Below are positions 2,681 to 46,931 of a stretch of 64,000 nt of DNA, one piece after another. Where the stretch lies: NCBI RefSeq assembly GCF_055900595.2, contig NZ_CM148325.1. The stretch is one strand, 5' to 3'. Under the pieces are notes generated by a model. It did not search any database. It was not told the origin of the DNA and saw only the letters and a list, made by a program, of their open reading frames with translations. Position numbers and translations under genes: made by a program. Each line of letters opens with the position of its first letter. The first letter of the stretch is position 1.

Positions 2681-3821
2681 GCAGCACCTCCAGCAGACGG
2701 TCGATATCCTGCATTTCATGCGCGGCGGTTAGCGTTAAGCGCAGTCGCGCAGTACCAGCGGGTACGGTTGGCGGGCGAATCGCCGTGACCCAGCAGCCTT
2801 GCTGGCGCAGTTTTTCTGCCAGTTGTAACGCACGGCTGTTATCACCGACAATCAATGGCTGGATGGCGCTGTATGAATCAGCAAGCGTAAACGGCAAATC
2901 CTGTACTCCGGCACGAAAACGCGTAATGAGTGCCGCCAGTTTTTCGCGCCGTGCATCACCCTCATCACTGCGAATGACCGCCAGCGACGCACGTAATGCC
3001 TGCGCCTGAGCGGGCGGCATACTGGTGCTGTAAATAAGATGGCGGGCAAATTGCAGTAGATAATCCGCCACCGTATCGGAGCAAAGCACCGCTGCCCCGC
3101 TGACGCCAAATCCTTTGCCAAAAGTCACCACCAGAAGTTCCGGTTTCACCTGCTGTTGCCAGCAGCTACCGCGCCCCTGTTCACCGATCACGCCCGTGCC
3201 GTGGGCATCGTCGACCATCAACCAGCCGTTGTGCTGTTGCGTTACCTGCTGGATTTCCGCCAGTGGCGCACTATCGCCGTCCATGCTGAACACGCCTTCT
3301 GTCACCACCAGTTGCTGCCCCGGACAGGGGGAAGCAAGCAGTCGCGCCAGATGAGCGACATCGTTATGGGTAAAACGGCGAAGCTGCGACGGGCTTAAAC
3401 TGGCAGCTTCCAGCAATGAGGCGTGACTCAGCCGATCGGCAACAATACGGTCCTCTTTCGCCGTCATCGCGGTAATGACTGCCTGGTTAGCGGCAAAACC
3501 AGAGATAAACAGCAGTGCCCGCGAATAGCCCAGCCACTCGGCCAGTTCTTCTTCCAGCGCCTGATGCGCCACGCTATAACCGCTGACGTGACCGGAACCG
3601 CCGCTACCGACGCCAAATTGCTCCGCACCCTGCTTCCATGCACGGATGATGTGCGGATGATGACTTAAACCTAAATAATCGTTACTGGAAAAGTTCAGAT
3701 ACTGGCATTCATCCGCCACCAGCCAGCGTCCGGCCCCTTGCGCCACCGGATAACGGCGACGCAGGGCATCGGCAGCACGCCGCGCATCGAGCGCCGCGTT
3801 GATTTTCTCCTGCCAGCTCAT
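2667..3821 (-). CDS. bioF: 8-amino-7-oxononanoate synthase
   Basis: 384 aa, [23 protein letters not shown]..., PLP-enzyme features, bio operon synteny. Confidence 0.95.
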
Positions 3822-4858
3822 AGTGCTGCCGCGTTGTAATATTCGTCAGTGTCCGGGGTCATCAGCGCCTGTTCAAGACGTTGCTGTTGTTCGTTATCGC
3901 CCGCCAGCACTGCGGTTTGCTGCGGATTTAACCCCAGTTTGCGGAACAGTTGCAGGTCTTTATCTTCTTCCGGATTCGGCGTGGTCAGCAATTTGCAACC
4001 GTAGAAAATCGAGTTTGCGCCAGCCATAAAGCACATCGCCTGAGTCTGTTCGTTCATCTGCTCGCGTCCGGCAGAAAGGCGCACGTAAGAGGTCGGCATC
4101 ATGATCCGCGCGACTGCAATAGTGCGAATAAAATCAAAGGCATCGACATCATCGTTATCTGCCAGTGGAGTGCCTTTCACCTTCACCAGCATGTTGATTG
4201 GTACGCTTTCCGGCGGCGTCGGCAGGTTTGCCAGTTGCAGCAATAATCCAGCGCGATCTTTTACCGTTTCGCCTAAACCTACAATGCCACCTGAACAGAC
4301 TTTGATCCCGGCATCACGCACTTTTTCCAGCGTGTCGAGACGTTCCTGATAAGTGCGTGTGGTGATGATATTGCCGTAAAACTCCGGCGAGGTGTCGAGG
4401 TTGTGGTTGTAGTAATCCAGCCCGGCATTCGCAAGGCGCTGCGCCTGAGATTCACTCAACGTGCCCAGCGTCATACACGCCTCCAGGCCCATCGCTTTTA
4501 CCCCCTGCACCATCTGTTCCAGGTACGGCATGTCGCGTTCGTGGGGATTCTTCCACGCCGCGCCCATACAGAAACGTGTCGATCCCGCCGCTTTCGCTTT
4601 TCGCGCCGACTCCAATACCTGTTCAACTTCCATCAACCGCTCAGCTTCCAGTCCGGTTTTATAACGCGAGCTTTGCGGGCAGTATTTGCAATCTTCCGGA
4701 CAAGCTCCGGTTTTAATTGACAGCAAAGTACTGACCTGCACCTGACGAGGATCGAAATGCTGACGATGCACCTGCTGCGCTTCAAACAGCAGATCCAGCA
4801 ACGGTTTTTCAAATAATTCTGTGACTTGCGACAATGTCCAGCGTGGGCGGTTAGCCAT
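3818..4858 (-). CDS. bioB: Biotin synthase (radical SAM)
   Basis: 346 aa with [10 protein letters not shown] radical-SAM cysteine motif; divergent from bioA. Confidence 0.96.
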
Positions 4859-4898
4859 GGGGCTTCTCCAAAACGTGTTTTTTGTTGTTAATTCGGTG

Positions 4899-4942
4899 TA
4901 GACTTGTAAACCTAAATCTTTTCAATTTGGTTTACAAGTCGA
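4899..4942. promoter_or_regulatory. bioO: bio operator/divergent promoters (BirA site)
   Basis: Inverted repeat TTGTAAACC (4904-4912) / GGTTTACAA (4929-4937) between the bioB and bioA starts. Confidence 0.8.
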
Positions 4943-4944
4943 TT

Positions 4945-6234
4945 ATGACAACGGACGATCTTGCCTTTGACCAACGCCATATCTGGCACCCATACACATC
5001 CATGACCTCCCCGCTACCGGTTTATCCGGTGGCGAGCGCCGAAGGTTGCGAGCTGATTTTGTCTGACGGCAGACGCCTGATTGACGGTATGTCGTCCTGG
5101 TGGGCGGCAATCCACGGCTACAACCACCCGCAGCTCAATGCGGCAATGAAGTCGCAAATTGATGCCATGTCGCATGTGATGTTTGGCGGTATCACCCATG
5201 CGCCGGCCATCGAGCTATGCCGCAAACTGGTGGCGATGACGCCGCAACCGCTGGAGTGCGTTTTTCTCGCGGACTCCGGCTCCGTAGCGGTGGAAGTGGC
5301 GATGAAAATGGCGTTGCAGTACTGGCAAGCCAAAGGCGAAGCGCGCCAGCGTTTTCTGACCTTCCGCAATGGTTATCATGGCGATACCTTTGGCGCGATG
5401 TCGGTGTGCGATCCAGACAACTCAATGCACAGCCTGTGGAAAGGCTATCTGCCAGAAAACCTGTTTGCTCCCGCGCCGCAAAGCCGCATGGATGGCGAAT
5501 GGGATGAACGCGATATGGTGGGCTTCGCACGTCTGATGGCGGCGCATCGTCATGAAATCGCGGCGGTGATCATTGAACCGATTGTTCAGGGCGCTGGCGG
5601 AATGCGCATGTACCATCCGGAATGGTTAAAACGAATCCGCAAAATGTGCGTTCGTGAAGGTATCTTGCTGATTGCCGACGAGATAGCCACCGGATTTGGT
5701 CGTACCGGCAAACTGTTTGCCTGCGAACATGCAGAAATTGCGCCGGACATTTTATGCCTCGGTAAAGCCTTAACCGGCGGTACGATGACCCTTTCCGCCA
5801 CGCTCACTACGCGCGAAGTGGCTGAAACTATCAGCAACGGCGAAGCCGGATGCTTTATGCACGGGCCAACCTTTATGGGCAATCCGCTGGCCTGCGCGGC
5901 AGCAAACGCCAGCCTGGCCATTATCGAATCTGGCGACTGGCAGCAGCAGGTAGCGACTATTGAAGCACAACTGCGCGAGCAACTGGCTCCTGCCCGTGAC
6001 GCCGAAATGGTTGCCGATGTGCGCGTGCTGGGAGCGATTGGCGTGGTCGAAACCACTCGTCCGGTGAATATGGCTGCGCTGCAAAAATTCTTTGTCGAAC
6101 AGGGTGTCTGGATCCGACCTTTTGGCAAGCTGATTTACCTGATGCCACCCTATATCATTCACCCGCAACAGTTGCAGCGCCTGACCGCAGCGGTTAATTG
6201 CGCGGTGCAGGATGAAACATTTTTTTGCCAATAA
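4945..6234 (+). CDS. bioA: Adenosylmethionine-8-amino-7-oxononanoate aminotransferase
   Basis: ORF 4882-6234. Canonical start [20 protein letters not shown] at ATG 4945; class III aminotransferase. Confidence 0.95.
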
Positions 6235-6292
6235 CGAGCAGTCAGCGTGAGGTTTTCTGGCTACACTTTCTGCAAACAAGAAAGGAGGGTTC

Positions 6293-6769
6293 ATGAAACT
6301 CATTAGTAATGATCTGCGCGATGGCGATAAGCTGCCGCATCGCCATGTCTTTAACGGCATGGGTTACGATGGCGATAATATTTCGCCGCATCTGGCATGG
6401 GATGATGTTCCTGCGGGAACCAAAAGTTTTGTCGTCACCTGCTACGACCCGGATGCGCCAACTGGCTCTGGCTGGTGGCACTGGGTAGTTGTTAACTTAC
6501 CCGCTGATACCCGCGTATTACCGCAAGGGTTTGGCTCTGGTCTGGTAGCAATGCCAGACGGCGTTTTGCAGACGCGAACTGACTTTGGTAAAACCGGGTA
6601 CGATGGCGCAGCGCCGCCGAAGGGCGAAACTCATCGCTACATTTTTACCGTTCACGCGCTGGATGTAGAACGTATTGATGTCGATGAAGGTGCCAGTGGC
6701 GCGATGGTCGGGTTTAACGTCCATTTCCACTCTCTGGCAAGCGCCTCGATTACTGCGATGTTTAGTTAA
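6293..6769 (+). CDS. ybhB: PEBP/RKIP-family protein YbhB
   Basis: 158 aa, MKLISNDLRDGDKLPHRHVFNGMGYDG...; sits between bioA and attB(lambda) as in K-12. Confidence 0.9.
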   Translation: MKLISNDLRDGDKLPHRHVFNGMGYDGDNISPHLAWDDVPAGTKSFVVTCYDPDAPTGSGWWHWVVVNLPADTRVLPQGFGSGLVAMPDGVLQTRTDFGKTGYDGAAPPKGETHRYIFTVHALDVERIDVDEGASGAMVGFNVHFHSLASASITAMFS

Positions 6770-7265: not shown

Positions 7266-7565
7266 CTACGATGCAAGAATCCATACCAATAAGCATCCGA
7301 TAATTGGGAAAGAAAAATCCAACAAACTTCCCACATCCCACACGCGTGGATCAAAACCTCCCCACCACGGCATGTTGACACGTTTCCCTTTCCCAAACTT
7401 TTCTATCCAGCGATATTCTGCCTGGGTGTGTTCACGCGCAATGAAGAACGTACAACCGGCTATCGCACCGTAAGCCCAGTTTCCGGTAAAAATACCAACC
7501 AGTACCTGAGCCGCAAAAGCGCAAAGCGAGTGAAGAAATGGAGTGACATCAATGCTCTTAATCAT
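7266..7565 (-). CDS. Small integral membrane protein (about 3 TM), unknown function, coupled to tailspike stop
   Basis: 99 aa. Hydrophobic stretches [46 protein letters not shown]. Its ATG overlaps the tailspike TGA (ATGA at 7562-7565). Confidence 0.6.
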
Positions 7566-9619
7566 GAAACTTCCCCATTGGTTGAAAATATGGCTCCTCC
7601 AACTCCAAGTGTATTTCGTGTTGTGCTCAACCTAAGAGGGCTGGAGTCAGAATTAGAATATCCTGTAGCAGAAATAAAAGATCCTCCACTAATAGTCAAC
7701 TGCGGAACATCGGCTATATCTGAATAAGTTCTGTCAGCAACAGTATTATTTATAGCCACATGTGATCCAAAAAAACTTCTTATTGTTTGGTTTTTAACTT
7801 TACTTCCTTCAATGGTTATCCTACTACCACAGTCAGCAATAAATCCTGAATCTGCATCCAGCGTTGCATTCATAAAAGAAGCTTCAGATCTCTCTACATC
7901 AATCCATCTAATATCTTTTGTGGGATTTGCACCAAATACATGACAAATATTAGAGTTAAACCTTACACCATCTTGGAGGTGCATTAATTTTTTTATATCT
8001 GTACCCCATAGCCTTGGAAAATTAACAGATGCTCCTGCATGGCAATCAAATCCCAGCTCAACCCCTGAGATATCTACAGCCTTTCCGGAAATAACAGCAC
8101 CAGTGTCTGCATTAACGGCTGTTCCACAATTGCGCATATCATTACCAGCAACATCAACACAACCCGCACCATCAATACGCACACCAAGTGCACATCCATA
8201 AAAACCTTTTTCAATATTTGGTTCAAGGACTTTACCACTTGTTTCTGCATCACTTTCTTCAACGTCATGTCGTCTTGCATCAACATATGCTGTATGAATG
8301 CACGTTAATCCACGATATGAGCAATGTATAGTTTTATGGTCGCGTATATTAACATTTGAACCATCTCTTACATTCCATCCTATATAACAATAGCTTGCAC
8401 TTGACCCCTGAAAATCTGCTTTAACATTATAAATACAATTAACTGACGCAACCGTACTCTCTGTGCACCGTTCAAACTTACTTACAGGCATTGATGCCTT
8501 GACATTATTTACCAGTTGCAGGGAAGAGTATCTGCTATAAGAAAAATCACATACGTAATACCCTTCTGGCATATATGCAGCAACACTTTCCTCATCAGGA
8601 GCACATCCGGTATGATATGCACTAATTTTTGCACCAAAACTACCATGAATTCCAACGTAGAACTTTCGAGCACCTGAATACGGATAGAAATTAAGTTCAG
8701 CTTTTTGAGTTACAATAAATGCACAAACATCGCTATCATCTCTATTTTCTTCAATCTGAATAGCAAATACAGGACTTTTTGCTGCATCGCAAATGTAAAA
8801 TAAATATTTGTATTCGTAATACGTCCTAACAGTTTTAGTAAACAAACTGGTATCAGAGAAAACCACTGAGTCTTCTGATATTATTTTAATCCATGATAAG
8901 TCACATCCTGCTGAAATTTCTATTTGCTCATTGAGCACAAAACCGGAAAGAATTTTAATTATGCAAAAATCAATGCCATTTTTCCATAGTGGACGCAGTG
9001 CAACAGCTGAGTTTAGAGCATCACTAATAGATTTAAAATTACCATATTCCCCAACTGTTATTGTGAATGCATACCTGGAATTAAATACTGCGGCACTCTC
9101 TCCAGAGTTAATAGCTGCAGATATCATGTCATAATTTGATATAAAATCATTTGGCGTGATTATTTCTGCGTTTTTATTGTGCTGTGTTCTAAGTTTTGAA
9201 TTTACATGAACACTTTTAACTGCAATACGGGAGTCGTCAACAAGTATTTCATTACCCTCTGTTGCTAACTCTTGTCTTAACTGATCCGGGTCATACTTCA
9301 GCACATTCGGAAAATAGAACTGCTGCACACCGTACGCATCATAAACAGCCATAGAATGGCCCTGTACAGTAACGAATTTGGCAATCTGTCCGTTATATAC
9401 CGGATATCCAGCAGCGTTAATGATGATTGGTTGCGAAACAGGAACGTGAGATCCATCTTCGTTCTCTACATAAACCTGAATCTGGTTTTCAGGATTTACA
9501 GGGGCAGTATCAATTTTACCGATATAAATTTTGCCATTGGCTACGGCTTTAAAAGAACGCGCCATAGTGAAGAGTTGCGAAGGCATACTCACTACAACAT
9601 TGGCTGTAATGTCTGTCAT
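7562..9619 (-). CDS. Tailspike (P22 gp9-type head-binding N-domain, unrelated low-GC receptor-binding domain)
   Basis: 685 aa. The N-terminal ~115 aa [34 protein letters not shown]...VLKYDPDQ parallels P22 gp9. The remainder is AT-rich with repeat-like beta-helix character. Confidence 0.85.
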
Positions 9620-9687
9620 TTAATTTGCTCCAGATACAAGGAATCGCCGCAGCATTGCCACAGTGATGCATTATTAATCAAACAAAG

Positions 9688-9702
9688 AGACCACTGTGGT
9701 CT
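9688..9702. promoter_or_regulatory. Mnt-operator-like palindrome
   Basis: Perfect 7-1-7 palindrome AGACCAC-T-GTGGTCT between the mnt start (9766) and the tailspike start (9619). Its half-site resembles P22 Omnt GTCCAC/GTGGAC. Confidence 0.5.
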
Positions 9703-9765
9703 TATTGAGGATGCAACCAGCAGATAATAAGATGCCGATCCACTCACAAAAGCGAGGCATCAAGA

Positions 9766-10134
9766 ATGGGAAGAGATGACCCGCAATTTAATCTGCGGCT
9801 ACCTTACGAATTAAAGGAAAAACTAAAACAGCGAGCCAAATCCAATGGCCGCTCTCTTAATTCAGAATTAGTTCAGATAGTGACTGATGCTGTATCAAAG
9901 CCATCCAAAATTTCAGGCTATCGAGACGATGCGGAACGCATCGCTGATGAGCAGTCAGAGCTTGTTAAGAAGATGGTGTTTGATACGCTGAAGGATTTGT
10001 ACAAAAACCCACCTGATGGTGGGTTCCATTTATTAGTCTTGCTTTGTGGACGGTATAAGGGATGCATTTGCCTCTTTAGGCTTCAAGGTATACATCCCAC
10101 CATTAAATGGATCTACAGCAAGCCAACCAATTAA
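9766..10134 (+). CDS. mnt: Mnt-like ribbon-helix-helix repressor with non-homologous C-terminal extension
   Basis: MGRDDPQFNLRLPYELKEKLKQRAKSNGRSLNSELVQIV...SELVKKMVFDTLKDLYK parallels P22 Mnt (83 aa). The ORF then runs 43 more codons through a terminator hairpin and into the convergent lipoprotein gene. Confidence 0.75.
   Translation: MGRDDPQFNLRLPYELKEKLKQRAKSNGRSLNSELVQIVTDAVSKPSKISGYRDDAERIADEQSELVKKMVFDTLKDLYKNPPDGGFHLLVLLCGRYKGCICLFRLQGIHPTIKWIYSKPTN
10001..10025 (-). terminator. Intrinsic terminator downstream of lipoprotein gene
   Basis: Minus strand reads AACCCACC-ATCA-GGTGGGTT followed by TTTTTG. It lies immediately after the stop at 10033. Confidence 0.65.
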
Positions 10135-10452
10135 CCCACCAAACACAAGGTTTCCACCAATATACCAACCATTAGCATTGGCTTTGATTGGCAGGGTAAC
10201 TGGTTCGTACCCATCCTTCTCCATAGTGATCTGGTAGCTCTTTTTGCCAAAATAACTACCATCTGACTTGGCAAGAGTTACTCCTTGCGGGGTCTTACCT
10301 TGCGCAACAATCACGCCTGATTCGTCTTTTACCTTAAAGCTCGCACCGGAAGGATTGCTGTTCACTTGCACAAGCTGTGTTTCGTCACCAACAATAGTTG
10401 CGCACCCAGATAACATGATAACGCCAGCAACGACGCCAATAATCCTCTTCAT
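10033..10452 (-). CDS. Lipoprotein with PEGA-like beta domain and Gly-rich C-terminal segment
   Basis: MKRIIGVVAGVIMLSGC lipobox (start taken at the second Met, 10452). C-terminal GWYIGGNLVFGGLIGWLAVDPFNGG. AT-rich moron in the immI/sieA region. Confidence 0.75.
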   Translation of the reverse strand: MKRIIGVVAGVIMLSGCATIVGDETQLVQVNSNPSGASFKVKDESGVIVAQGKTPQGVTLAKSDGSYFGKKSYQITMEKDGYEPVTLPIKANANGWYIGGNLVFGGLIGWLAVDPFNGGMYTLKPKEANASLIPSTKQD

Positions 10453-10569
10453 ATCAATTTCCATATTTAAAAAACCGGAAACATCCTAATGACAAACCAT
10501 TCAAATGTGAAGTAGGCAAAAGATGTTTACTTTTTTCATGGTATCCTGCTCAAAACTAAGGAGGTTGGC

Positions 10570-10959
10570 GTGAAGCAATTTCTTACTGCTATGTTCTTAT
10601 TCATATCTTTTGGGGCTACAGCAGAGTGCTGGGTCGTTGGAGATATGCGCGGAATAAGCTATTCAGAACGAAATAATTTCCATCCGGAAGAAGATGGTTT
10701 TAGTGGAACATTCATCATTAAGACAAACGGTGAAGATGCCAGCATCACATATTCTGGGACAGATGCGGGCGGCATGGCTTACAAAGCATTGTCTAAAAAC
10801 TCCATCATAGGAATCGGCGCGAATGGCGAAACTCAACGCGTTATCGACTCATGGGTAATACATCCTACTGGAACAGTTTTAATGTCAAAAACCATTTCCG
10901 GTTATGGAAATATGGATTCAACCAAAGCTTTTGTTGGAAAAGTAAAAAGAAAATGTTAG
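10570..10959 (+). CDS. Secreted (signal-peptide) protein, paralog of 36750-37154; unknown function
   Basis: 129 aa, GTG start after AAGGAGG. MKQFLTAMFLFISFGATA|ECW signal peptide and C-terminal Cys. Shares ECW-V, Y-ALS-N, STK-FVG-V-C blocks with the cI-linked ORF. Confidence 0.75.
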   Translation: MKQFLTAMFLFISFGATAECWVVGDMRGISYSERNNFHPEEDGFSGTFIIKTNGEDASITYSGTDAGGMAYKALSKNSIIGIGANGETQRVIDSWVIHPTGTVLMSKTISGYGNMDSTKAFVGKVKRKC

Positions 10960-10983
10960 CGATTGAATCCAATTTCCCATACG

Positions 10984-12825
10984 TTACTGCTGTGTTGCCT
11001 CAGTAGCAAACAGCGGTCTGATGGCATTCGCAGCGTTATTTATCGCTCTTTCATAGGCTGGTGTTCCTGCTTTGGTGTTTGCCAAACGAAGAAGCATATT
11101 CCTTGCTGCTTTGGACTCATACAAGCGCATCATTGCACCAAAACCAGCCTCAATCCCCATTGATACGCCAAGGGTCGCAGTTGCGCCAATCGTCCTTATC
11201 CTGTTGGCTTGCGATTGCCCCGTCTGAGTTACTACATTTGCGGTGTCTGACCTTGCTGTTTGCTGTAGAACTTCATGAAGAGCATCAAGCTCTTTCATGT
11301 GCTTTCCAGAAAAAATAGTGTTGTAAATTTCACCGCCTGACTGAGATTTCAGCTTATTAACTTCAGTGATGAACTTGGCTGGAGAGTCCCCGGCCTTTTC
11401 CGCTATTTTGCTGACGTAAGCTGCACGCATAGCATCTTTCCCCTTATCATCCAGTGCGCTCCAGATTCGTTTCACGTCAGATGGTTTTCTGCTTAATACA
11501 ACGGTATTTATAAGTTCAGGACTGGCTTCACTGCTTGCCTTGTTGAGCTTGTTGGCAATGTTTTTATTAAGCACCTTATTATAAACGTTTGCATAATCGG
11601 AATTTGCTTTAAGGTATTTTGCTGCGTCTGATGCACCGAGGTTTTTAGCAACTGCGTTACGAAGGTCTTTTGACATTGCATTCTCTACCATATTGGTAGC
11701 TGCTTTTGCCTGGTTGGGGAAGACCATAGCATCTCCCTGAACATTAGATCTAAATGCTGTTCTGTGCTGACGCAAGAGATCAAACGTAACATCCAAATCA
11801 GTTGCAGGGTTTGCTAATTCTTCACGTAGGTTACGCAAGGATGTAAGCAGGCTTTGATTGGCAGACGTCCCAAGCCGTTCCTGTCTTGCGATCGCTGTAT
11901 TCAGAGCATTCATGGTATTTGTGGTATCAACTGCGGCATTACCCATTTTATTGGTGACGTCATTGATAACAGCGCCAGCGGCATCCTTCCGCCCCCTTAA
12001 CGTGGTGGTCAGAGATTTCACCACATCATCAGGGTTGTACTCACCAAAACGGTCAAAATAATTGCTTACCAGCTTACTCCGCGTTGCATATTGCTCTGCT
12101 CGCTTTGAGCCCGTCCCGAGCAAAGCCCCCTCGGCATCCTGAGTAAGGCCGCGAGTGAAAGCATTTTTCGGCGGGATAACATCAGATGTCATTGGTGTCA
12201 CGCCCATCGATTCTGATGTGGCAATTTTCTTCGCCACTTCTGGCGCAATATCACCTTTTATAGCCGTTATTCCACGCCCTATTCCCTTTGCTGCTGCGGA
12301 AAGAACACCCTGAGCGGCAAGGTTAACTCCGGCATTTTTAGCTGCATTTTGTGCGAAATCGCCTTTCTGATTTGCGGCCTCTGCCAGCGATCCAATAGCC
12401 ATGCTTCCTGCCGTTCCAACTCCTGGAACTAAATACCCACCAATTGTTTCACCGGCTTGTGCGTATGGGTCTGTCGGTTTGTCTACTGGACGATAAACAT
12501 CATCCAAAACTTTTGGCCCACCAAGCCCCTGACTGATTGCATTAATCAGACTTGCGCCACCCTGCAATACGTCAAATGGTATGTTTACCAGACCACGACC
12601 AGCCTGTTCTGCAATTTGCCCTGCACTTTGACCACCAGTGAGCCAATCGCCAGCTTGTTGCATCAATGATGGTTCTTCACGTACTGGTGCATTATTGGCC
12701 TGATTAACTGTTTGTTGCTGAACAACCTGACCAGCAAAATAATCATCAATGGCGGCTCCAATATCTTCCGTGCTCGTACCATCAGGGAAGGTAAATGTCT
12801 TACCGTTTGCAGTTACTTTCATCAT
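10984..12825 (-). CDS. Ejection/internal virion protein, P22 gp16 position
   Basis: 613 aa (P22 gp16 is about 609 aa). Last gene of the 7-20-16 ejection-protein block by synteny. Confidence 0.75.
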
Positions 12826-35801: not shown

Positions 35802-37154
<1,353 letters not shown>

Positions 37155-44246: not shown

Positions 44247-44465
44247 ATGTACTTGACACTTCAGGAGTGGAACGCACGCCAGCGACGCCCAAGAAGCCTT
44301 GAAACAGTTCGTCGATGGGTACGCGAGTGCAGGATATTCCCTCCTCCGGTTAAGGATGGAAGAGAGTATCTGTTCCACGAATCAGCGGTAAAGGTTGACT
44401 TAAATCGACCAGTAACAGGTAGCCTTTTGAAGAGGATCAGAAATGGGAAGAAGGCGAAGTCATGA
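44247..44465 (+). CDS. xis: Excisionase (lambda Xis)
   Basis: 72 aa, MYLTLQEWNARQRRPRSLETVRRWVRECRIFPPPVKDGREYLFHESAVKVDLNRP... Confidence 0.95.
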   Translation: MYLTLQEWNARQRRPRSLETVRRWVRECRIFPPPVKDGREYLFHESAVKVDLNRPVTGSLLKRIRNGKKAKS

Positions 44466-45513
44466 GCGCCGGGATTTACCCCCTAACCTTTATATAAGAA
44501 ACAATGGATATTACTGCTACAGGGACCCAAGGACGGGTAAAGAGTTTGGATTAGGCAGAGACAGGCGAATCGCAATCACTGAAGCCATACAGGCCAACAT
44601 TGAGTTATTTTCAGGACACAAACACAAGCCTCTGACAGCGAGAATCAACAGTGATAATTCCGTTACGTTACATTCATGGCTTGATCGCTACGAAAAAATC
44701 CTGGCCAGCAGAGGAATCAAGCAGAAGACACTCATAAATTACATGAGCAAAATTAAAGCAATAAGGAGGGGTCTGCCTGATGCTCCACTTGAAGACATCA
44801 CCACAAAAGAAATTGCGGCAATGCTCAATGGATACATAGACGAGGGCAAGGCGGCGTCAGCCAAGTTAATCAGATCAACACTGAGCGATGGATTCCGAGA
44901 GGCAATAGCTGAAGGCCATATAACAACAAACCCTGTCGCTGCCACTCGCGCAGCAAAATCAGAGGTAAGGAGATCAAGACTTACGGCTGACGAATACCTG
45001 AAAATTTATCAAGCAGCAGAATCATCACCATGTTGGCTCAGACTTGCAATGGAACTGGCTGTTGTTACCGGGCAACGAGTTGGTGATTTATGCGAAATGA
45101 AGTGGTCTGATATCGTAGATGGATATCTTTATGTCGAGCAAAGCAAAACAGGCGTAAAAATTGCCATCCCAACAGCATTGCATGTTGATGCTCTCGGAAT
45201 ATCAATGAAGGAAACACTTGATAAATGCAAAGAGATTCTTGGCGGAGAAACCATAATTGCATCTACTCGTCGCGAACCGCTTTCATCCGGCACAGTATCA
45301 AGGTATTTTATGCGCGCACGAAAAGCATCAGGTCTTTCCTTCGAAGGGGATCCGCCTACCTTTCACGAGTTGCGCAGTTTGTCTGCAAGACTCTATGAGA
45401 AGCAGATAAGCGATAAGTTTGCTCAACATCTTCTCGGGCATAAGTCGGACACCATGGCATCACAGTATCGTGATGACAGAGGCAGGGAGTGGGACAAAAT
45501 TGAAATCAAATAA
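44443..45513 (+). CDS. int: Tyrosine integrase (lambda Int)
   Basis: 356 aa, MGRRRSHERRDLPPNLYIRNNGYYCYRDPRTGKEFGLGRDRRIAITEA...HELRSLSARLY...LLGHKSDTMASQY. Confidence 0.96.
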   Translation: MGRRRSHERRDLPPNLYIRNNGYYCYRDPRTGKEFGLGRDRRIAITEAIQANIELFSGHKHKPLTARINSDNSVTLHSWLDRYEKILASRGIKQKTLINYMSKIKAIRRGLPDAPLEDITTKEIAAMLNGYIDEGKAASAKLIRSTLSDGFREAIAEGHITTNPVAATRAAKSEVRRSRLTADEYLKIYQAAESSPCWLRLAMELAVVTGQRVGDLCEMKWSDIVDGYLYVEQSKTGVKIAIPTALHVDALGISMKETLDKCKEILGGETIIASTRREPLSSGTVSRYFMRARKASGLSFEGDPPTFHELRSLSARLYEKQISDKFAQHLLGHKSDTMASQYRDDRGREWDKIEIK

Positions 45514-45647: not shown

Positions 45648-46931
45648 GTGAACACATTTTCAGTTTCCCGTCTGGCGCTGGCATTGGCTTTTGGCGTGAC
45701 GCTGACCGCCTGTAGCTCAACACCGCCCGATCAACGTCCTTCTGATCAAACCGCGCCTGGTACCTCTTCTCGCCCGATTCTGTCGGCAAAAGAAGCGCAG
45801 AATTTCGATGCTCAACACTATTTTGCGTCCCTGACGCCAGGTGCTGCAGCGTGGAATCCTTCCCCGATTACTCTGCCTGCGCAACCTGACTTTGTTGTCG
45901 GCCCGGCGGGTACTCCGGGTGTAACGCATACCACGATTCAGGCGGCGGTAGATGCGGCAATTATCAAGCGCACCAACAAGCGCCAGTATATTGCCGTGAT
46001 GCCTGGTGAGTATCAGGGAACGGTGTATGTCCCTGCTGCTCCGGGTGGAATTACTCTGTACGGTACAGGTGAAAAACCGATTGATGTGAAGATTGGGCTT
46101 TCCCTTGATGGGAGCATGAGCCCTGCCGACTGGCGTCACGACGTCAACCCGCGCGGCAAATATATGCCAGGTAAACCAGCGTGGTATATGTACGATAGCT
46201 GCCAGAGCAAACGCAGCGACAGTATCGGCGTTCTGTGTTCTGCGGTCTTCTGGTCACAAAACAACGGCCTGCAACTGCAAAACCTGACCATCGAAAACAC
46301 GCTGGGTGATAGCGTAGATGCGGGTAACCATCCGGCGGTGGCACTGCGTACTGATGGCGACAAAGTGCAGATCAATAACGTCAACATTCTCGGTCGTCAG
46401 AATACATTCTTTGTCACCAACAGTGGTGTGCAAAACCGTCTGGAAACCAACCGTCAGCCGCGTACTCTGGTGACCAACAGTTACATTGAAGGGGATGTGG
46501 ATATCGTTTCTGGTCGCGGCGCAGTGGTGTTCGATAATACCGAATTCCGCGTGGTGAACTCACGTACTCAGCAAGAAGCGTATGTGTTTGCACCGGCTAC
46601 GCTGTCTAACATCTATTACGGTTTCCTCGCCGTAAACAGCCGCTTCAATGCTTCCGGTGATGGCGTGGCGCAACTGGGCCGCTCGCTGGATGTTGATGCC
46701 AATACCAACGGTCAGGTGGTGATCCGTGATAGCGCCATCAACGAAGGTTTTAACACGGCTAAACCGTGGGCCGATGCGGTGATTTCCAATCGCCCGTTTG
46801 CGGGTAATACTGGCAACGTTGATGATAACGACGAAGTACAGCGTAATCTGAATGACACTAACTACAACCGCATGTGGGAATACAATAACCGCGGCGTGGG
46901 TAGCAAAGTGGTTGCAGAGGCGAAGAAGTAA
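45648..46931 (+). CDS. ybhC: Pectinesterase-family outer-membrane lipoprotein / acyl-CoA thioesterase YbhC
   Basis: 427 aa, GTG start, lipobox LTACSS, parallel beta-helix family; flanks attB(lambda) on the gal side. Confidence 0.9.
   Translation: MNTFSVSRLALALAFGVTLTACSSTPPDQRPSDQTAPGTSSRPILSAKEAQNFDAQHYFASLTPGAAAWNPSPITLPAQPDFVVGPAGTPGVTHTTIQAAVDAAIIKRTNKRQYIAVMPGEYQGTVYVPAAPGGITLYGTGEKPIDVKIGLSLDGSMSPADWRHDVNPRGKYMPGKPAWYMYDSCQSKRSDSIGVLCSAVFWSQNNGLQLQNLTIENTLGDSVDAGNHPAVALRTDGDKVQINNVNILGRQNTFFVTNSGVQNRLETNRQPRTLVTNSYIEGDVDIVSGRGAVVFDNTEFRVVNSRTQQEAYVFAPATLSNIYYGFLAVNSRFNASGDGVAQLGRSLDVDANTNGQVVIRDSAINEGFNTAKPWADAVISNRPFAGNTGNVDDNDEVQRNLNDTNYNRMWEYNNRGVGSKVVAEAKK

Follow-up and report, generated by a model that had tools for sequence, protein, structure and literature searches.

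Positions 10033-10959 of a 64,000-nucleotide stretch of contig NZ_CM148325.1 (NCBI RefSeq assembly GCF_055900595.2; hereafter, the window) carry two divergent genes of a P22-like (Lederbergvirus) Escherichia coli prophage, one for a small secreted protein, which we refer to as Hex2, and one for a lipoprotein. Our analyses support, with moderate confidence, that these genes are two independent envelope morons expressed in lysogens and that Hex2 is a periplasmic superinfection-exclusion factor carried in the sieA cassette. An earlier annotation of the window, hereafter the sequence-only reading, had assigned both genes to the P22 sieA slot, and we confirmed that both lie between mnt and a gp16-type gene.

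A Hex paralog in the sieA slot

The following features are relevant to the comparison of hex2 with sieA and hex.

10537-10569, plus strand: conserved cassette head with an extended -10-like sequence, TGGTATCCT, at 10539-10547 and the Shine-Dalgarno sequence AAGGAGG at 10558-10564
10570-10959, plus strand: hex2, 129 amino acids, GTG start, with the Shine-Dalgarno sequence AAGGAGG at 10558-10564
10984-12825, minus strand: gp16-type ejection (DNA transfer) protein gene, convergent with hex2 and 24 bp apart from it
36121-36753, plus strand: 434-type cI repressor gene
36750-37154, plus strand: Hex ortholog, 134 amino acids, the start of which overlaps the cI stop (ATGA)

Judged by position in the P22 annotation, the interval 10033-10959 corresponds to the sieA/immI region of P22, with mnt on one side and the gp16 gene on the other. 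This region is the "ant moron" of Casjens and colleagues and holds sieA in P22 (PMC2629481). hex2 has the location of sieA in that it lies between homologs of genes 16 and 9, on the opposite strand, and behind the PsieA region. Among 80 hex2 loci on IMG/VR contigs, the gp16 gene is the convergent neighbor in 79, and the upstream side is highly variable. Only ~33-40 bp are kept among 47 distinct sequences upstream of hex2, and these read (C)ATC(T)GGTATCCTGNNCAAAACTAAGGAGGTTGG(Y)GTG. We found this cassette head in at least 120 IMG/VR stretches; in the 80 of these that were inspected, it precedes at least 12 unrelated open reading frames (ORFs), SieA included. Most of the cargo ORFs are for small proteins that start with a transmembrane or signal segment, and the product of one is 92% identical to P22 SieA. 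P22 itself has an element identical to the head at 10537-10569 immediately before sieA (L215, 1467-1500). Based on the common head and the common slot, we conclude that hex2 is an alternative cargo of the sieA slot. In P22-like phages, the ~33-bp head behaves as a recombination boundary.

In P22, a single copy of sieA together with 85 bp of upstream DNA is enough for exclusion, SieA escape mutations map to gp16 and gp20, and sieA is carried by only 22 of 66 P22-like phages (Leavitt et al., mBio 2024, PMC10883804). The escape mutants identify the C-termini of gp16 and gp20 as the SieA targets. sieA and hex2 have in common the slot, the strand, the promoter-like and Shine-Dalgarno sequence upstream, and the convergent gene 16, and expression in lysogens is expected for both. 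Their products, in contrast, are unlike each other. P22 SieA, with 164 amino acids, spans the inner membrane several times, whereas Hex2 has a single N-terminal hydrophobic segment and is a predicted soluble, secreted beta-barrel. No homology between Hex2 and SieA of types A, B, or C was detected, and they fell into separate BLASTP clusters at E ≤ 1e-5.

As the sequence-only reading had described, ORF 10570-10959 encodes a 129-residue signal-peptide protein on the plus strand that is paralogous to the product of the cI-coupled ORF at 36750. The N terminus of Hex2 is MKQFLTAMFLFISFGATA|ECW, with a signal peptide at residues 1-18 and a predicted mature protein from E19 to C129. In BLASTP, Hex2 and the product of ORF 36750-37154 are 28% identical over their full length (E = 9e-12), a result that bears out the paralogy; moreover, both copies match PHROG 2651 (hex2, E = 2.9e-61; cI-linked copy, E = 1e-58), and a profile search put them in one group. 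The cI-linked product is 97.8% identical to Hex of phage 434 and to the product of Sf6 gene 38, and 97.8-99% identical to the post-cI proteins of 434, lambda imm434, Sf6, Sf101, HK446, and HK633. The family, which had been called an unknown periplasmic one, is therefore that of Hex. Placement of the two divergent genes in known, unrelated families had been named as an outcome that would speak against the earlier proposal, and this came true in part, as the family is a known one. The name Hex (heterologous exclusion) comes from the finding that Salmonella lysogens of lambda-imm434 exclude P22 (Shkilnyj, Colon and Koudelka, Viruses 2013, PMC3564112, crediting Susskind and Botstein 1980), and P22 exclusion is a feature of both SieA and 434 Hex. 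Hex2 also shares 97% identity with the orf129 product of Salmonella phage Emek, the annotators of which had noted its likeness to Sf6 gene 38. Among 5426 complete E. coli genomes, 146 carry hex2.

With Hex of 434 and the Sf6 gene 38 product, Hex2 shares its size, the PHROG, the signal peptide, the C-W motif, and the C-terminal Cys. In the temperate lambdoid phage 434, hex lies at a locus expressed in lysogens, where it is co-transcribed with cI from PRM (PMC3564112); judged by its locus, hex2 would likewise be expressed in lysogens. Consistent with what the sequence-only reading had pointed out, the post-cI position and the sieA slot are both classical loci of expression in lysogens, and we infer from the shared head element that hex2 is expressed there. 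Unlike 434 hex, hex2 is not coupled to cI and PRM, lies between mnt and gene 16 behind its own PsieA-like head, and is strongly diverged. A 434-type cI gene is located directly upstream with the ATGA overlap in 80 of 80 Hex434-type loci. The direct post-cI location, which hex2 does not have, is a trait of this 434 subtype and not of the whole Hex family.

Both hex2 and a cI-linked Hex gene are also present on at least one other viral contig from IMG/VR, IMGVR_UViG_648276644_000012 (L038, L260), and two further genomes have the two copies on separate contigs. With ~3 of 72 genomes among the matches listed, carriage of two Hex copies is recurrent but uncommon.

Architecture and export of the Hex family

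An exhaustive profile search identified 171 Hex-family representatives at the 50%-identity cluster level, of which 132 are full-length; an additional word-indexed protein search gave few further members. Nearly all representatives are single-domain proteins of 120-140 amino acids. The N terminus is hydrophobic and signal-peptide-like in 130 of the 132 full-length representatives, an N-proximal Cys lies a few residues from an AxA-type cleavage site in 129 (usually as C-W, C-Y, or C-F), and the final 13 residues include a Cys in 125; all three features are combined in 121. In an alignment of 90 sequences, no column other than C20, G28, and C129 is invariant. Hex2 fits this architecture, with a signal peptide, a Cys after the cleavage site, a C-terminal Cys, and a mature domain of ~110 residues. 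The Hex2 model is a small, eight-stranded beta-barrel (predicted local distance difference test score [pLDDT], 93). Because mature Hex2 is hydrophilic (grand average of hydropathy, -0.33), it would be a soluble barrel in the periplasm and not one of the outer membrane, and the conserved Cys pair probably forms a disulfide that ties the two ends of the mature protein together. The Sec signal peptide and the Cys pair argue that Hex-family proteins act in the periplasm.

The exported nature of the family is hidden in database proteins by the choice of internal Met codons as starts in RefSeq/PGAP. In E. coli EC332 (NZ_AP039429.1), PGAP begins both Hex-family genes in this way. There, Hex is annotated at 1581581-1581892 (window 36843-37154) as a protein of 103 amino acids that has lost the whole signal peptide, and hex2 at 1608246-1608614 (window 10591-10959) as a protein of 122 amino acids.

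Scanning 90 members against Pfam gave no consistent family for Hex and no MliC/PliC or lipocalin signal, and the idea of a lysozyme inhibitor is without sequence support. Searches of the PDB with the Hex and lipoprotein family profiles identified no sequence relatives, and BFVD had no significant match for Hex.

More distant Hex-family genes were also found in several other settings. Another P22-like phage (L221) has two tandem and mutually diverged Hex-family genes (3359-3745 and 3778-4164) in its sieA slot, adjacent to the gp16 gene (Pfam Phage_P22_gp16). In a siphophage prophage (L224), a Hex-family gene (4001-4384) lies between the tail chaperone and tape-measure genes, and the genes for RexB (4559-5002) and RexA (5013-5822) are located beside it. 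The terminal part of a small repressor-like gene, itself divergent from a Cro/YdaS-like gene, is overlapped by another Hex-family gene, and a P2-like prophage remnant carries one at its end.

Like Hex, Glo, a periplasmic exclusion protein of Vibrio phage K139, is small, Sec-exported, encoded downstream of cI, equipped with an N-proximal and a C-terminal Cys, and annotated for phage exclusion. We regard Glo as an analog and rejected it as a distant Hex homolog because the hhalign alignment covers the signal peptide only; judged by its sequence, Glo looks helical and not beta.

The lipoprotein gene and its relation to hex2

On the other side of the cassette head, the following features were mapped.

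10483-10511, minus strand: candidate promoter of the lipoprotein gene, sigma-70-like TTCACA-17-TAGGAT (consensus scan), in a region identical in epsilon34
10033-10452, minus strand: lipoprotein gene, 139 amino acids from MKRII, lipobox LSG|C, Ala at +2
10006-10025: intrinsic terminator for both directions, separating mnt from the lipoprotein gene (terminator scan, RNA folding)

ORF 10033-10452 encodes a lipoprotein of 139 amino acids with the lipobox LSGC, in agreement with the sequence-only reading. An alternative in-frame ATG at 10464, which would give 143 amino acids, is not conserved in phage 720R6, and 10452 is therefore the likely start; accordingly, the divergent intergenic region that had been delimited at 105 bp exists but measures ~117 bp. 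The gene also has its own terminator, as had been proposed: on the minus strand, 10006-10025 forms a 10-bp stem followed by UUUUU (-15 kcal/mol, z = -2.7), and a rho-independent terminator is annotated at the same site in epsilon34. The lipoprotein is 99.3% identical to epsilon34 gp15 and is its ortholog (PHROG 6823), with the same position, the same terminator, and no notable difference. Epsilon34 gp15 had earlier been listed among the genes of the ant moron as conserved hypothetical (PMC2629481). We identified 726 homologs, mostly in Enterobacterales, many of which are annotated simply as lipoproteins.

The protein is a predicted lipoprotein based on the match to [LVI][ASTG][GA]C after a signal sequence. 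Among 47 homologs, Cys17 and Ala18 are invariant and Gly16 is at least 90% conserved, and LPAM_1 is matched in 6. In E. coli, the +2 residue of a lipoprotein directs its membrane targeting, and the Ala at this position suggests targeting to the outer membrane. Thus, by predicted signal peptide and lipobox, both divergent genes encode envelope-targeted proteins, as had been anticipated. Residues 25-93 form a transthyretin/PEGA-like beta-sandwich with the seven strands of a prealbumin-like fold. The PEGA family itself (PF08308) scores 17.6 bits, which is below its gathering cut-off of 20.8 bits, and is weakly matched in 14 of the 47 homologs. Residues 95-118 (WYIGGNLVFGGLIGWLAV) are hydrophobic and Gly-rich, have low model confidence, and are followed by a conserved C-terminal hairpin (DPFNGGMYTL). 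The sequence-only reading had called this C terminus Gly-zipper-like; no Gly-zipper Pfam family matched it at E ≤ 1.

Lambdoid prophages of E. coli and prophages of Proteus encode homologs with 69% identity to the lipoprotein in morons that separate the tape-measure gene from the tail chaperone T. The HK97 gp15 exclusion moron, to which the lipoprotein has no sequence similarity, occupies this same slot. The lipoprotein resembles moron-encoded exclusion proteins (HK97 gp15, Cor, and T5 Llp) in its small size, its envelope targeting, and a gene that has a candidate promoter and a terminator of its own; a match to phrog_1119 (Cor) is limited to the lipobox and signal peptide, i.e., residues 1-20. 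In L008 and L010, the lipoprotein homolog in the HK97 gp15 slot is located at 6001-6414, and the same cluster has a porin (Porin_1/Porin_4) moron at 10261-11424 between the M and L tail genes. Guessing from context, and with much less certainty than for Hex2, we suggest that the lipoprotein probably functions in envelope modification or exclusion. In our literature search, Hex was treated only in the 2013 paper (PMC3564112), and the lipoprotein family was not found.

According to the model put forward by the sequence-only reading, the secreted protein may be the lipoprotein's partner in a dedicated two-component envelope system under joint control of the shared divergent region. The genes are indeed adjacent and divergent, both products are envelope-bound, and the pair recurs, with ~39 occurrences in complete E. 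coli genomes and 22 on IMG/VR contigs. However, the lipoprotein gene is missing next to hex2 in 58 of the 80 IMG/VR hex2 loci. Among complete E. coli genomes, 146 have hex2 and 123 have the lipoprotein gene, so that the ~39 adjacent pairs equal the chance expectation of 39.8 (146 × 123/451), in which the 451 genomes matching any part of the region are a rough choice of universe; the suggested co-occurrence of hex2 with PEGA-like lipoproteins thus shows no excess over chance, and ~84 of the 123 lipoprotein-carrying genomes have no adjacent hex2. Across 75 loci with the PsieA head, the lipoprotein gene is adjacent to hex2 in 6 of 13 cases, to an hkcB-like cargo in 8 of 9, to a 62-amino-acid cargo in 3 of 7, and to SieA in 0 of 6. 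For hex2 against the rest, this is a mild, nonsignificant enrichment (odds ratio, 3.2; Fisher P = 0.08) in counts that are not phylogenetically independent. The lipoprotein gene also pairs with a 75-amino-acid cargo (62- and 75-amino-acid cargos; epsilon34, 720R6), and each of the two genes occurs alone in other phage types, including siphophage prophages. A recombination junction lies between the two genes at ~10537, i.e., inside the supposedly shared control region, and epsilon34 keeps the entire intergenic region up to the start codon, which is followed by another gene. Presence/absence polymorphism between syntenic phage genomes is clear for both genes. With regard to moron features, the lipoprotein gene has a promoter-like site and a terminator, and hex2 has the promoter-like head. 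The distribution of the genes largely refutes a two-component system, which we regard as very improbable; the lipoprotein gene and hex2 are neighbors through mosaic recombination and not functional partners.

Possible functions and prophage setting

In the reading that we favor, the interval would be a reduced ant moron or immI-sieA region with two independent cassettes. The first (10537-10959, plus strand) combines the sieA position and a sieA-type head with a diverged Hex paralog as cargo. Hex2 would be made constitutively in the lysogen and exclude superinfecting phages; in the periplasm, it would interfere with DNA delivery, e.g., with how the gp7/gp20/gp16 ejection conduit in P22-like phages is assembled or works, and would thus be a functional substitute for the inner-membrane protein SieA. 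The second cassette (10006-10511, minus strand) would be a self-contained promoter-gene-terminator unit for an envelope lipoprotein and a widespread prophage moron. The recurrence of Hex-family genes at exclusion and defense hot spots supports an exclusion role. Several points weigh against this reading. The exclusion role and the expression of Hex2, and likewise the role of the lipoprotein, are deduced from sequence and context and not from a phenotype. The head is a candidate promoter, assigned from sequence conservation and a consensus-like extended -10 only, and a terminator scan and RNA folding found no terminator after hex2. Moreover, the signal-peptide and disulfide calls are heuristic, and at least one Hex-family gene is chromosomal, located outside any prophage between the atp operon and metA. 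Finally, the published Hex mechanism, inhibition of the RecA-stimulated cleavage of the 434 and P22 repressors, is cytoplasmic (PMC3564112); if this repressor protection is correct, a periplasmic location is not needed.

Transferred to Hex2, the published mechanism would have the protein bind the 434-type cI, or cI on DNA, in the cytoplasm and damp RecA-stimulated autocleavage, thereby providing a second lysogeny-stabilizing dose. A 434-type repressor is present in this prophage, deletion of hex increases RecA-dependent spontaneous induction 30-fold in recA+ cells only, and in vitro, the fragment sHex keeps the 434 and P22 repressors from being cleaved (PMC3564112). Nevertheless, we consider this explanation improbable for Hex2. 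The signal peptide and the Cys pair, nearly family-wide among the 132 representatives, fit an oxidizing periplasm and are a misfit with a cytoplasmic mechanism. Export was never considered in the Hex paper, in which the words "signal" and "periplasm" do not occur; sHex is a refolded 61-residue half-barrel fragment, and the over-expressed full-length protein was toxic (PMC3564112). The 158-amino-acid ORF used in that work begins at 36678 in the window, and active sHex starts at Glu43 of this ORF, precisely where signal peptidase is predicted to cut (ANS|ECW). This start site and the toxicity of the full-length protein fit an exported protein and are awkward for a direct action on repressor in the cytoplasm. 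In addition, Hex2 is only 28% identical to Hex, its slot is elsewhere filled by membrane exclusion proteins, and members of the family are found far from repressors.

It is rather unlikely, though clearly less so than cytoplasmic repressor protection, that Hex2, the lipoprotein, or both serve the host in lysogenic conversion by means other than phage exclusion, either as a periplasmic lipocalin-, avidin-, or PliC-like ligand-binding or inhibitor barrel or through envelope stress, serum resistance, or colonization. The chromosomal Hex-family gene between the atp operon and metA would fit such a role, as would the lipoprotein homologs near porin morons and the many Enterobacterales homologs annotated only as lipoproteins. 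On the other hand, Hex, the founding member, has a genetic exclusion phenotype; Hex-family genes occupy four kinds of exclusion or defense slots (after cI, the sieA slot, the chaperone-to-tape-measure gap, and beside RexAB); and the Pfam scan of 90 members gave neither a MliC/PliC nor a lipocalin signal. We continue to favor a periplasmic exclusion factor. Tentatively, and with less confidence than for Hex2 itself, this reading may be extended to the whole family: all Hex proteins, including 434 Hex, might block the P22-like ejection conduit from the periplasm, with repressor protection being indirect or an in vitro artifact of the half-barrel, and the sieA slot might be a general plug-in site for SieA, Hex2, and at least 10 other envelope proteins that block the same injection step.

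If Hex2 is an exclusion factor, an orphan "hypothetical" gene of ~146 of 5426 complete E. coli genomes would be tied to the named exclusion gene hex, and a single prophage would carry two diverged Hex copies under two lysogenic control regimes. The family-wide signal peptide and Cys pair and the start of sHex at the cleavage site would make the classical Hex mechanism directly testable. Similarly, the ~33-bp PsieA/Shine-Dalgarno head would mark a site at which at least 12 small envelope proteins are interchangeable, i.e., a catalogue of candidate blockers of P22-like injection. For specialists, the points of interest are Hex export as opposed to the published mechanism and the cassette head common to many cargos.

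The prophage is integrated between ybhB and ybhC, and its further landmarks are as follows.

6293-6769: ybhB, left flank; the prophage starts at ~6.9 kb
7562-9619, minus strand: tailspike gene
9766-10134, plus strand: mnt repressor gene (Pfam Arc, 7.9e-22; Repressor_Mnt, 3e-18)
44443-45513: integrase gene; the right end of the prophage is at ~45.6 kb
45648-46931: ybhC, right flank

The 1.4 kb around the locus (9700-11100) is 100% identical to E. coli EC332. From the locus to cI (~11100-36121), the window is ~470 bp shorter than EC332 (NZ_AP039429.1) and therefore does not match EC332 over its whole length. Rfam identified no RNA families in 9400-11300, and PADLOC and NCBIfam gave nothing useful. 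In mnt, 1 nt has been lost from an A-run five codons before the usual stop at ~10000-10010 (ACAAAAACC compared with ACAAAAAACC in epsilon34 and 720R6). Consequently, the ORF has 122 amino acids instead of 83 and runs antisense into the lipoprotein gene; in EC332, PGAP annotates mnt as a pseudogene. This prophage region lacks arc and ant, leaving mnt without an obvious target, except for a possible Pant-like promoter before the tailspike gene. Directly 3' of the tailspike gene, at the end of the prophage, an ORF on the minus strand (7266-7565) encodes a protein of 99 amino acids with several hydrophobic segments, annotated by PGAP as a hypothetical protein; this gene is possibly another moron.

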